Below are positions 4,271 to 34,215 of a stretch of DNA of 34,860 bases, piece after piece. The stretch covers positions 1 to 34,860 of the forward strand of contig JANNYQ010000057.1 of NCBI GenBank assembly GCA_031410215.1, read 5' to 3'. Position 1 is the stretch's first letter. The number at the start of each line of letters is the position of its first letter. The position numbers and the translations under genes are program-made. Source of the stretch: Candidatus Altimarinota bacterium (lineage in GTDB: Bacteria > Patescibacteriota > Gracilibacteria > BD1-5 > UBA2023). The notes under the pieces are model-generated. The model did not search any database and was not told where the DNA came from. It saw only the letters and a list, made by a program, of their open reading frames with translations.

Positions 4271-4330
4271 AGCTCGATTTTTTGCATATATCCAAAAATA
4301 ATGATACCATAATGGGGTATCATTATTTTT

Positions 4331-7963: not shown

Positions 7964-8001
7964 TCAAAAAATCCTCTACAGACCGTAGAGGATTTTTTTG
8001 A
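7964..8001. terminator. Bidirectional terminator overlapping the NUDIX stop codon
   Basis: AAAAAATCCTCTAC-agacc-GTAGAGGATTTTTT between convergent genes. Confidence 0.75.
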
Positions 8002-16061: not shown

Positions 16062-17840
16062 ATGAATCATCTCAATATCAACATCAATACCTATGAGCGT
16101 GACGGCGATGTCATCATCGGTGATATCCATACAATCATCAACCAGGCTGACAGACTTGCTCTCATTGGACCCAACGGCGTCGGCAAGAGTACACTGATGC
16201 GGATCATCTCTGGAGAGATATCGGAATATGATGGCAATATCGAGAATATCGGTGGCATGACGCTCGGATATCTCGAGCAGATACACTTCATGGATGAGTC
16301 TATCACTATAAGAGATGAGCTCCGAGATGCATTCGCAGATATCCGAGCACTCGAACAGACTATAGTACGAGAAGAGATACAAATGGCAGAAACAGGAGAA
16401 TTCGAGGCGTACACCGAGGCGATCGAGAGATACAAGTTCCTTGGAGGATATACCTATGAGAATGAGGTAGAACGGGTGGCTCGTGGGATCGGGATATTTG
16501 AGCTCCTCGAAAAACCTCTATCGAATGTATCGGGTGGCGAACGGACCAAGATCGCTCTCGCAAAGATACTCCTCTCAAAACCTGATTTTCTCCTCCTCGA
16601 TGAGCCGACCAACTTCATCGATCTCGTATCAGTCGAGTGGCTCGAGCACTATCTCGAGCATACCTGGAAATGAGGATATATCATAGTCTCTCACGATCGC
16701 GAGTTCCTCGACCGCACTTGTAGTATCACCCTAGAAGTACTCGGAAAGGGCGGGATCAACACCTATCACGGCGACTACTCGTACTCCGTCGAGGAGCGAA
16801 AAAAGGTAAAAACCATACAAGACAAGAGATATGAAGAACAGCAGATCCATATCGAGAGTGAAAAGAAACTCATCAACCGATTCCGAGCAGGATCCCGATC
16901 AGGATTCGCAAAAAGTAGGGAGCGACAACTCGAAAAAGTCGAGATCATAGAGAAAGCAGAGACTCGTATAGGAGTCAACTTCATATTCGCATATGACAAA
17001 CATGGGCCCGAGACACTCATCAAGATCGAGGATACATTCATCGGACGACATGAGCCACTCTTCTTTGTTCGGAGTGCTATATTGTCAAGAGGAGATCGAG
17101 TATGAATTGTATGAGAAAACTGAGTTGGGAAATCTACTCTCATAAAAACTATACTGGGACAGATGAAGCCACTCGAAGGATATCTGAGTGTACATGAACA
17201 TGCTCGGATCCTCTACTTCTCACAACTCCATGAGACGCTCGACACAAGTACGAGTATATATGACAACTTCGTGCTCCATGGACTCCCATATTCTCATGAA
17301 CGAGTCGGGAGTATCATCTCGACCTATGGGTTCGAGTTCGCAGACTATACTAAGATCGTCGGTAACCTCTCTGGTGGAGAGAGGTCTCGTCTCCTTTTCG
17401 CTATACTAAGCCAGAATACGCTTGCATGGAAGCATACCAAGAAAACTGATATCCCAGAAAATGAAAATATAATTCCAGAATCCTCATCAGTATCCAATCT
17501 ACTGGTATTCGATGAGCCAACAAACCACCTCGATGCAGATACTCGAGAATCACTCGAGCGAGCAATTCGAGAATATCCAGGGACTGTACTCTTCATCTCT
17601 CATGATCGATACTTCGTAAACAAGCTCGCAGAGCGTCTCTGGATCATAGAGGATGGTGAACTCATCATCTCCTATGGCAACTATGAGGACTATCGGTACA
17701 AGCGTGAGCGAGGGATCGATCTCGATATGAGTCTCTTCAATGTGGATGGCGAGATGGATCTCGTCCTCGAGGAGAAACTGGGAGTCGTCGAGGCTCGCCG
17801 TATCAAGGAAAAGTTTGCCAGACGCAAGCTCAAGAAATAA
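16062..17840 (+). CDS. Second ABC-F family ATPase (592 aa)
   Basis: GPNGVGKST/VSGGE/LDEPTN and (G)EN(G)VGKST/LSGGE/FDEPTNHLD. Glycines of the second Walker A are encoded by TGA. Confidence 0.93.
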
Positions 17841-17882
17841 TAAAAAATTCTACCCCCGAGTAATCGAGGGTAGAATTTTTTA
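17841..17882. terminator. Bidirectional terminator
   Basis: TAAAAAATTCTACCC...GGGTAGAATTTTTTA between the ABC-F gene and the convergent fibre gene. Confidence 0.85.
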
Positions 17883-17910
17883 TGAATCAGTTTTTATTCA
17901 ATCCTATCAA

Positions 17911-31407: not shown

Positions 31408-34215
31408 ATGTCAGATTTCCCAAAACAATACGATCCAAAGATCCATGAACCAAAGAGTCAGACACTCTGGGAAGAGAAAAAGATATATCAACCAAAGGTG
31501 GACTCTACGAATACCACACAGGAAAAATTTTACATACCTATTCCACCACCGAATGTAACAGGCAATCTCCACCTCGGACACGCTCTGACACTCTCGATCG
31601 AGGATATCATGACACGCTATCATAGACTCCGGGGGGATGCGACACTCTGGGTACCAGGGACAGATCACGCAGGGAAAGCAACTCAGGCTCAGGTGGAGAA
31701 GCGACTCGAACGCAATGGAACAAGCCGCAAAAATATAGGACGAGAAGCATTTCTCGGGGAGTGCTGGAAATGGATCGATGAGTACGGAGGAAATATACAG
31801 AATCAGGTCAAGATGATGGGGGCGTCAGTGAACTGGGATATGGAGCGATTTACTTTTGATGAGTCCAATAATCAACTCGTAGAGAAGATATTCGTCGATC
31901 TCTATGAGAAGTGACTTATATACCGTGGGGAGTACATGGTGAACTATTCTCCAGTACTCGAGTCTGTGATATCAGATATCGAGGTCGAGCATCAGGAGGT
32001 CGCCGAGCACATGTACTATATCAACTACTTTGTCTCTGGATCTGACAAGGAGCTCCTCGTGGCGACTACTCGTCCTGAGACCCTCCTCGGAGATATGGCA
32101 CTCGCAGTCCATCCGAAGGATAAAAGGTACAAGAAACTCATCGGCAAATCAGTCATCCTCCCGATCGTCAATCGTGAAATCCCGATAATTGGCGATGACA
32201 GTATCGATATGGAATTCGGTACTGGAGTTGTCAAGGTGACCCCAGCTCATGATCCATCAGATTTTGAGATGGCTCGTCGTCATGGGCTCCGCACTGACTA
32301 TCGTGTCATCGAGAAGACAGGGCTCATGAGTGCTGAGGCTGGAGTTTTTGCTGGGCTCTCGGCAGTAGGTGAGGCGAGAGACAATATTGTCGAACTCCTG
32401 AAAAGCAAATGAAACCTCGTCAAGATAGAGCCATATACGCATACCGTTGGATTCTGTTCTCGTGGCAAGTGTCGAGTAGAGTCAGTAGTATCGACTCAGT
32501 GGTTCGTTAGGGCTAGTACAATGGCCGAGAAAGTGACGACAGGATACAAAAAATGAGAGTTCAAAATCGTGCCAGAACGATTCAATAAAACATTCGAAGA
32601 CTGGATCTACAATCTGCGTGATTGGTGTATCTCTCGTCAGCTCTGGTGGGGGCATCAGATCCCAGCATATTATGATATCAATACTGGAGAGCTCCTCGGA
32701 GTGACTCGGGATCCAACGAATCTGATCCAGGAACAATGTAAGAAATACAATATAGAGTACAATGAGCAGTGGAAAAATACTCAAAATGGAAGTAATTCGA
32801 GTGAAGATCGAGAACCACAGCGAACCGTACCTCATAATACGGCGAGCGAGGAATCGGAGATCTGAACTTGAAGAACGACATTTTCAGAATTTTTTATGAA
32901 GCGTGATGAGGATGTATTGGATACCTGGTTTTCGAGTGCACTCTGGCCATTTGCGGTGCTTGATTGGGATTTTGAGAATCCAAGTGAGTTCTTCGCAAAA
33001 TACTATCCAGCCAATGTCCTCGAGACAGGCTATGATATACTATTTTTCTGGGTGATCCGCATGCTCCTGATGGGATACGAATACACTGGAGAGACGCCAT
33101 TCAAGACAATATATCTCCATGGACTCATCCTCGATGAGACTGGTCGCAAGATGTCGAAGAGCTGGGGCAATGTCATCGATCCACTCACGGTGATCGAGGC
33201 CCACTCGACGGATGCACTCCGTCTCGCTGTCACCCTCGGCAATACTCCTGGGAACAATATGAACTTCTCCATGAGGTCCGTCGAGGAGAACTCACTATTT
33301 CTCAACAAGTTCTGGAATATTATCAGATTTGCCTGGATGAATGTCGGATACATCACGGAGTCACGAGCAGATATCATAGAGAGGATCACTGCAAACAAAA
33401 ATGATCTCCTCCCTTATGAAGTATGGATCCTCTCTCGTCTCACAGCTATAACAGAGCGTGTGACAGAAGGCATGGAAAACTACGGATTTGCGGCTGTTGG
33501 CTCTGAGCTGATCACGTTCGTCCGAGATGAGTTCGCAGATATAGCCATCGAGGCATACAAGGTAGAGAAAGATAATACCAAATACGGCAAAGAGGTCATC
33601 TCACTCTGTGTCCTCGATATCATCACACTCATGCATCCATACATCCCGCATATCACCGAGACGCTCTATGGATATATCACAGAGGGTCATATTCTCGCCA
33701 CTGCATCCTGGCCGACTCCTGCTATATCGAGAAATATAGATAGTGAGAAAAATCTCGAACAAATCTGGGAAGTAGTACGTACCATCCGCAATATCCGAGC
33801 TGAGTCAGGGATCAAACCAGGAGAATATCACGATACGATCATCCAGGCAAAATCTGATATGATAGCCAATCTCGAGGCAAATCTCAATCTCATCTCAGGT
33901 CTCGGACGTGTCAATATCACTCTCAATCCAGCGGGTCGAGATCCTCAGGGATACGCCTATGGTATCTGTGGCTCTGTCGAGATCTATATCCACAATGAGA
34001 TCGATGTAGCTGGGATAGAGCTCGAGAAAACAAGAATCATGGGACTCATCGAGGAGAAGCGGGAATATATCAGAGCTCTCGAGGTCAAGTTATCCAATAC
34101 GGCATTTACCAGTCGAGCTCCTGAGAAGATCATCAGAGTCGAGATGGACAAAAAGAATCTCGCACGAGAGCAACTGGAAAAACTGGAGGAGAAATATGGG
34201 AAGATAGGGGGATAA
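31408..34215 (+). CDS. valS: Valine--tRNA ligase (935 aa)
   Basis: [58 protein letters not shown] and a C-terminal coiled coil. Confidence 0.97.
32772..32895. repeat. Nested imperfect palindromic element, in-frame inside valS (RPE/MITE-like)
   Basis: Three nested arm pairs: 32772-88 with 32879-95 (14/17), 32796-809 with 32859-72 (11/14) and CCGTA/TACGG (5/5). Confidence 0.7.

Follow-up and report, generated by a model that had tools for sequence, protein, structure and literature searches.

The locus examined here raises the question of how a palindromic stretch of DNA came to lie within the reading frame of a valyl-tRNA synthetase (ValRS) gene and what, if anything, it does there. The gene is located on a contig of 34,860 nt (JANNYQ010000057.1, assembly GCA_031410215.1; the whole contig is referred to as the window) from a Candidatus Altimarinota bacterium of the Gracilibacteria, and the palindrome occupies positions 32772–32895. 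Based on the sequence of the window, it had been proposed (the original prediction) that the palindrome belongs to a selfish repeat family resembling the Rickettsia palindromic elements (RPEs) or the MITEs (miniature transposable elements with inverted repeats) and that its insertion was eased by the reassignment of a stop codon. The results presented here make it very probable that positions 32772–32895 are a copy of a dispersed, RPE-like, non-autonomous hairpin repeat family that is carried as a passenger in ValRS.

The sequence, the open reading frame (ORF), the arms and the fold of the palindrome agree with the prediction: about 124 bp of inverted repeat lie in frame in ValRS and include two in-frame TGAs. 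The predicted extent holds for the hairpin at 32772–32895, but the DNA that is extra relative to orthologues with an empty site is larger (32725–32901) and amounts to a net gain of 147 nt over the empty-site relatives, more than the 124 nt of the hairpin. The features of the locus, in window coordinates, are:

31408..34215, plus strand: valyl-tRNA synthetase (ValRS) gene, host of the insert, 935 amino acids under code 25, five TGAs
32725..32901, plus strand: variable block, residues 440–498, 59 amino acids, replaces about 10 amino acids of empty-site orthologues
32772..32895, plus strand: repeat element, imperfect hairpin of 124 nt with four helices and 40 base pairs, end-to-end model match
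32773..32788, plus strand: 5' arm of the terminal helix, complementary although variable in its outer 9 bp, with a conserved inner TCAAAA core
32825..32842, plus strand: apical stem-loop, CCGTA ... TACGG, the stem being CTGTA/TACAG in the copies of two other genomes (G016 and G098)
32863..32865, plus strand: in-frame TGA, Gly486, inside the element
32869..32871, plus strand: in-frame TGA, Gly488, inside the element
32879..32894, plus strand: 3' arm of the terminal helix, a conserved TTTTCAG core followed by a variable outer part

The host gene was identified by its match to the ValRS of Thermus thermophilus (PDB 1GAX, E = 1.3e-180) and by the Pfam families tRNA-synt_1 and Anticodon_1 on the ValRS orthologues, and it is the only ValRS match in the assembly (called G000; 936 kb, fragmented, 76% complete). 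The conserved WWGHQIP and DVLDTWF motifs flank the insert-bearing stretch and are both intact. The genome encodes a tRNA-Gly with the anticodon UCA (contig C50, positions 2765–2843), and TGA occupies the Gly169 and Gly335 columns of ValRS, in which glycine is invariant in 21 orthologues; these two lines of evidence support the predicted use of code 25 (TGA = glycine) in the host genome. Within the variable block, the hairpin element is preceded by a flank bearing the shared xQCxKY motif and followed by two codons. When aligned with 1GAX, the block is placed between residues 417 and 446 of that protein, with 73 residues of the query opposite 28, a position that would correspond to a surface loop, and the insert peptide appears hydrophilic from its translation.

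The outer arms of the element (32773–32788 and 32879–32894) are 88% complementary, and the 124 nt fold into one long hairpin with a minimum free energy (MFE) of −35.4 kcal/mol (z = −4.77; none of 200 dinucleotide shuffles fold as well). A permutation of the element's own codons gives a similar result (z = −4.76, 0 out of 1000). Folding energy alone is nevertheless weak evidence for a hairpin element, and the hairpin is taken to exceed chance because its base pairs covary across copies, as described below.

That the repeat is dispersed was visible only in part by BLASTN. A search of the 124 nt against their own assembly returned the query itself and three chance-level fragments, so the dispersed copies predicted for this genome were not recovered in that way, whereas matches were found in 53 out of 204 genomes across the order. 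A covariance model (R1) was built from an alignment of 30 copies, including copies from relatives. The ValRS element matches this model with 131.2 bits (E = 3.9e-30) and is the sole copy in the window, and at E ≤ 1 the model identifies five matches in the host genome: ValRS, C20:842–963, C50:2848–2970 and two on C38, the second of which is the weakest (25.6 bits). The reading of the element as single-copy, suggested by BLASTN, was therefore dropped in view of the four further copies, all of which apparently lie between long ORFs. The survey was extended to the 89 genomes of the taxonomic family, with at most 39 candidates scored per genome so that copy totals are lower bounds. Overall, 66 out of 89 genomes contain at least one match and at least 630 matches were identified. 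In a separate search with R1, three genomes of a single genus (G109, G105, and G113) gave 61, 68, and 49 copies, respectively. In a sample of the class, 15 out of 151 genomes match R1, ten of them outside the order with weak scores of 32–60 bits.

The element is 121–127 nt long, and copies between genes are found in both orientations and in many unrelated contexts, some of them following closely on a gene, at a distance of about 30 nt from an ORF or 4 nt from a tRNA. Three of the copies in the host genome (C38:1821–1943, C38:5829–5952, and C50:2848–2970; loci L065–L067) form a diverged subfamily that shares the ends TCAAAAAC...GTTTTTCAG and has a different palindromic interior; this subfamily is also dispersed in G009, G011, and G017. 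Across 100 copies the information content falls exactly at both ends of the model, giving sharp boundaries, and the ends display a loose purine-rich/pyrimidine-rich consensus.

Several side observations were made during the survey. The tRNA-Gly(UCA) gene, whose product is the reader of TGA, is located 4 nt upstream of the repeat copy at C50:2848–2970 (L065). Four copies in G109 (L170, within KsgA, and L166, L167, and L168) are 145–173 nt long as compared with the usual length of about 123 nt; the longer copies suggest internal insertions or duplications, and at 148 nt the one in KsgA keeps the reading frame. Weak R1 matches were found in other families of the class (L128 in G271, L129 in G331, and L130 in G278). 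The longest ORFs at these three loci are approximately equal under codes 11 and 25, so that the genomes may use the standard code, and in G331 an ORF of about 610 codons contains the match, which is in a different frame. Within the window, four short hairpins (964–1001, 4294–4330, 7966–7998, and 17840–17883) have perfect or near-perfect arms of 14–20 bp and loops of 4–7 nt, and each is bordered by an A-run and, on the opposite side, by a T-run. They resemble bidirectional intrinsic terminators, and they score only at chance level against the repeat model.

The comparison of orthologous loci reveals both filled and empty sites. The ValRS segment spans 96 amino acids here as compared with 46–47 amino acids in 24 relatives. 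A junction match was obtained for 81 of the 89 family genomes, and the empty-site orthologues that the original prediction had anticipated are the majority (68 empty, 13 filled). Filled junctions are found in all five genomes of genus g28, both genomes of g25, 4/10 of g4, 2/14 of g1, and none of the ten genomes of the high-copy genus g30. The host tree places G000 among seven genomes with an empty site, the nearest compared (84–91% amino acid identity), and G016, G078, and the pair G098 and G100 are each sister to an empty genome. Twelve of the ValRS carriers have the private upstream flank xQCxKY in common, which occurs in no empty allele. G090 lacks this flank and its ValRS copy belongs to another subfamily; it is therefore taken as a further insertion into this ValRS loop, independent of the first. 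In G068 the flank is retained and the insert has decayed, leaving the extra codons without a match to the model.

Empty sites were also identified for other copies. The C20 copy (L064) is absent in G009, G014, G017, and G007. The C50 copy is missing from G014, G007, and G011, whereas G017 has it with an internal deletion. The cysteinyl-tRNA synthetase (CysRS) gene is filled in G008 and empty in the host genome of the window, with a net insert of 135 nt. At C20 (approximately 810–965) a fragment of about 20 nt that resembles the 3' end of another copy lies immediately to the left of the full copy. Compared with relatives in which the site is empty, about 155 nt are therefore additional, a hint that insertion at this spot was nested or took place more than once.

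The insert of G000 shows an identity of 0.64–0.91 to the other carriers as compared with 0.66–0.70 gene-wide, and the likeness is limited to the insert and a short flank. A recombination tract was considered as an explanation and rejected, as local conservation confounds identity and the comparison does not decide between transfer and loss. Joints in an RNA run that skip 228–237 nt were not used as empty alleles, as their sides are short and the sequence between them is unseen. A tree of 65 copies, based on only 124 nt, is poorly resolved and its support values were not used.

The evidence that places the hairpin beyond chance comes from the pattern of substitutions among copies. The structure obtained with RNAalifold contains 40 pairs, of which 31 keep pairing through changes on both sides. 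A conserved unpaired core is retained in the aligned copies, contrary to what unrelated AT-rich hairpins would show. Among the 30 copies, 94.9% of the paired cells are complementary as compared with 78.8% in shuffles (0 out of 500 reach the observed value) and 28–46% with slid partners. The pattern persists when the 12 ValRS copies are analyzed alone (all 124 nt long, in an alignment fitted to the structure of the model): 28 out of 40 pairs have changed on both sides and 93.3% are paired. The terminal 10 columns display approximately 2.3 times the entropy of the core (1.03–1.06 vs. 0.45 bits) and keep their complementarity. For five carriers, the divergence at the three codon positions is 0.23/0.16/0.53 in the host ValRS gene and 0.24/0.20/0.28 in the element of the same genomes. 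The divergence in the element is thus flat with respect to codon position, and the constraint therefore acts on the nucleic acid and not on the peptide. Unpaired columns of the element are less divergent than paired columns (0.22 vs. 0.31). Judged from these alignments, the amino acids are barely constrained, and the nucleotides of the element would be either constrained or younger than the split of the host gene.

Three of these features (covariation at a single locus, the halved third-position divergence, and unpaired cores that are more conserved than the stems) lead to the idea that the hairpin is actively maintained in coding genes, either by selection on a DNA or RNA structure recognized by a protein or by arm-to-arm self-correction, and that gene conversion resembling homing carries filled alleles of permissive loops, such as that of ValRS, from one lineage to another. 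The homing component is suggested by the filled allele with its private flank, which is found in 12 genomes scattered over the host tree, G000 being nested among empty-site relatives. This combination is possible but unlikely; if it was true, the family would represent a structure-dependent mobile element with a propagation mode that is not described for RPEs or MITEs.

A related explanation is that the hairpin functions for the host as a nucleic-acid element, for example in mRNA stability, processing, or pausing or as protein-bound DNA, which would be compatible with a mobile origin. Double changes that preserve pairing at one orthologous ValRS site in 12 copies (28/40; 93.3%), a divergence at third positions that reaches half the value found in the host gene (0.28 vs. 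0.53), unpaired columns that are more conserved than paired ones, as in structured RNAs recognized by proteins, and the position of intergenic copies close to the ends of ORFs and tRNA genes all agree with such a function. However, 68 out of 81 ValRS genes, the nearest relatives compared among them, do without the insert, G068 has lost the hairpin and kept the extra codons, and the copies occupy many unrelated contexts and both orientations between genes. Furthermore, no Rfam family was matched (0 matches at E ≤ 1 with the Rfam 15 covariance models in window positions 32400–33300), and the lower divergence, measured on an alignment that was fitted to the model structure, could equally reflect copies that are younger than the split of the host gene. 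A host function is thus considered rather doubtful, and a passenger repeat remains the preferred explanation of the insert.

Pfam assigns the hosts of 18 fetched copies and of the window's own copy to ValRS, CysRS, lysyl-tRNA synthetase (LysRS), RecJ, a DinG-like helicase, a methyltransferase, and Dus, and overall the element is found in frame in at least 10 other kinds of housekeeping gene besides ValRS. All 23 Pfam-validated genic copies are inserted in the forward orientation and are free of TAA and TAG, and 21 of them use one and the same frame, each with one to five in-frame TGAs. This frame is open in 44 out of 57 copies under code 25 and in none of the 57 under code 11. These numbers agree with the claim that the element is tolerated only under code 25, and a genic frame that always contains TGA and is closed in all copies under code 11 backs the proposed link between insertion and stop-codon reassignment.

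The least biased estimate of the genic share comes from a census of G109, in which 51 of the 61 copies were assessed. Eighteen have at least 60 open codons on both sides, and five lie in hosts recognized by Pfam (an AddB-like helicase, a UvrD-type helicase, a class-V aminotransferase, KsgA, and a MiaB-like enzyme); of the other spanning ORFs one is ambiguous, and those without a Pfam family (12/18) look spurious. With only 5 out of 51 copies in recognized genes, the majority are therefore intergenic. The number of genic copies obtained with the open-frame criterion (26/57 “embedded”) was rejected as inflated by spurious ORFs, given that Pfam found no family in 12/18.

The frame rule also bears on whether the insert is translated at all. 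A stable hairpin might be cut from the mRNA or bypassed by the ribosome in the manner of an intervening sequence, and translation is itself deduced from the DNA. Removal would make frame and orientation irrelevant, yet the 23 genic copies are without exception forward and free of TAA and TAG, with 21 in one frame, whereas the intergenic copies often carry stops in that frame (open in 44/57). In addition, the net inserts in ValRS (147 nt) and CysRS (135 nt) are multiples of three, and translation has been reported for a comparable insert of an RPE in gmk (PMC2229807). It is very improbable that the element is left untranslated, and the insert would be read through as part of the protein. Still less credible is that the insert represents a lineage-specific functional domain of ValRS in which the palindromic DNA is incidental. 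In favor of a domain are the in-frame position of the insert, the variability between ValRS lineages of the segment that holds it and its fixation in two genera (g28, 5/5; g25, 2/2), but the same DNA is found in CysRS, LysRS, RecJ, helicases, KsgA, Dus, a methyltransferase, an aminotransferase, and intergenic DNA, its codon-position pattern is not of the protein type, and it is missing from the closest relatives that were compared. An assembly or binning artefact, such as a chimeric contig, can practically be dismissed in spite of the fragmented and 76% complete assembly, as a contig from a second study spans 32581–32988 with five differences and no gaps and the insert is present at the same site in twelve other genomes.

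Traces of mobility of the hairpin repeat family were sought in the flanks and in the gene content of the genomes. Target-site duplications were not detected among 56 flanks (k = 2, 5/56 as compared with 4.67 expected; k = 4 and k = 5, 0/56) or in the two filled/empty alignments of C20 and C50, and no target motif was found across 100 copies. A Y1 transposase is present in 27 out of 89 family genomes and shows no relation to copy number: G109 contains 61 copies and no Y1 gene, G089 contains no copies and seven Y1 matches, and the gene is absent from G109, G106, and G057, each with at least 39 copies. Neither an IS110-type transposase nor a TnpB above the cut-off was identified in any of five high-copy genomes (0/5 each). 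No parent insertion sequence was found for the ends of the element. The original prediction is hence upheld in its RPE-like part, through dispersal, empty sites, and frame, and not in its MITE part, for which a target-site duplication and a partner among the three transposase families are missing. As a separate observation, G113 carries 26 Y1 (IS200/IS605-type) matches, many with identical scores (e.g., C5:48759–49118), suggesting that an insertion sequence has multiplied there recently.

One idea on the origin of the variable outer helix was rejected. The helix might have been copied from the target or be a pre-existing terminator hairpin, but the empty C20, C50, and ValRS sites hold no such sequence. 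A likeness of the empty CysRS site to the 5' core of the element was not reproduced at other sites.

A number of observations weigh against a selfish repeat that spreads by transposition and is carried passively. No mobilizing enzyme was found among the three transposase families searched (Y1, IS110, TnpB). Copies within a genome are no more alike than copies from different genomes (identity 0.772 vs. 0.769), which gives no sign of very recent transposition and means that the spread is therefore old or slow, and the sole pair of identical copies has identical flanks too. Covariation at a single locus under vertical inheritance is not expected of a purely selfish, decaying insert. The genic share in G109 is lower than that reported for RPEs, and the RNA run covers only conserved ValRS parts of other organisms with low likeness. 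Finally, the excess of folding energy depends on the control: although the element stands out against the permutation of its own codons, it does not do so against synonymous recoding with the codon usage of the gene (z = −1.71, 58/1000), and other 126-nt windows of ValRS reach an MFE of −46.8 kcal/mol.

Taken with these reservations, the following scenario is proposed for the repeat family. The family belongs to a single family-level clade in which TGA is read as glycine, and weaker relatives of it are found in other parts of the class; it has probably spread selfishly. Copies land in intergenic DNA and in genes, and those in genes would persist only if the protein tolerates an extra loop of about 41 amino acids and if the copy lies in the forward orientation and in the single frame free of TAA and TAG, the TGAs of which would be read as glycine by tRNA-Gly(UCA). 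The ValRS copy would have settled in a naturally variable segment between two conserved motifs of the catalytic core, where it is presumably read through as a loop rich in Ser, Asn, Thr, and Glu. The peptide would be a passenger, and it would be the hairpin nucleic acid and not the amino acids that is under constraint.

The presence of such a family has several implications. With genomes of about 1 Mb, the bacteria of this radiation are commonly viewed as streamlined. Despite these small genomes, one genus carries about 50–70 copies of the repeat, and essential enzymes carry it in frame, among them three aminoacyl-tRNA synthetases, RecJ, UvrD-type helicases, and KsgA. The family may provide a clean natural example of how stop-codon reassignment alters which selfish DNA a proteome can absorb. 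On the practical side, in-frame repeats break gene calls made under code 11, inflate apparent protein novelty, and can mislead marker-gene alignments and phylogenies, and their presence or absence at fixed loops offers a strain-level marker.

No description of such an element in Gracilibacteria was found in the literature covered, which does not extend to subscription journals and bioRxiv supplements, and the family was compared with repeats known from other bacteria. REP/BIME elements and palindromes derived from IS200/IS605 are hairpin repeats without target duplications that are thought to move single-stranded, and RAYT (Y1) transposases belong to these systems. The family described here is likewise a hairpin-based repeat without target duplications. 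It differs in its length of 121–127 nt as compared with the 20–40 bp given for REPs (PMC3733652), in that Y1 genes do not track copy number, and in that TnpB stays below the cut-off in all five high-copy genomes. In the MITEs Correia/NEMIS, ERIC/IRU, and RUP the terminal inverted repeats are conserved, and target-site duplications, of TA or another sequence, accompany most of these elements (PMC2229807). The likeness to these MITEs lies in a length of about 100–200 bp, the lack of an encoded transposase, highly base-paired transcripts, multiple copies, and occasional in-frame fusions. In contrast to them, the element has neither a target-site duplication nor a target motif, and the outer 9 bp of its complementary ends vary.

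The closest resemblance is to the Rickettsia palindromic elements, which were reportedly described by Ogata et al. in 2000 and 2002. The element shares with them its size, a long stem-loop, and many dispersed copies in a small genome, as well as intergenic copies alongside in-frame copies in housekeeping genes, the use of one element frame, and the lack, here too, of a detected target-site duplication or transposase. RPEs are reported to be dispersed stem-loops of 105–146 bp that occur between genes and in frame in housekeeping genes and use one element-encoded frame, no target-site duplication is established and no transposase is known for them, and for some RPE families “nearly half” of the copies are genic (PMC2229807, PMC10969869). 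About a tenth of the copies lie in recognized genes here, in the one genome censused, and this share differs from the one quoted for those RPE families. The host lineage is unrelated and uses code 25, the genic frame requires TGA to be read as glycine, and copies differ in the outer 9 bp of their terminal helix. The element thus appears to work like an RPE but is not classed as one, as it was set beside the RPEs by description and its host is not Rickettsia and reads TGA as glycine; it is a new repeat family of the RPE-like kind.

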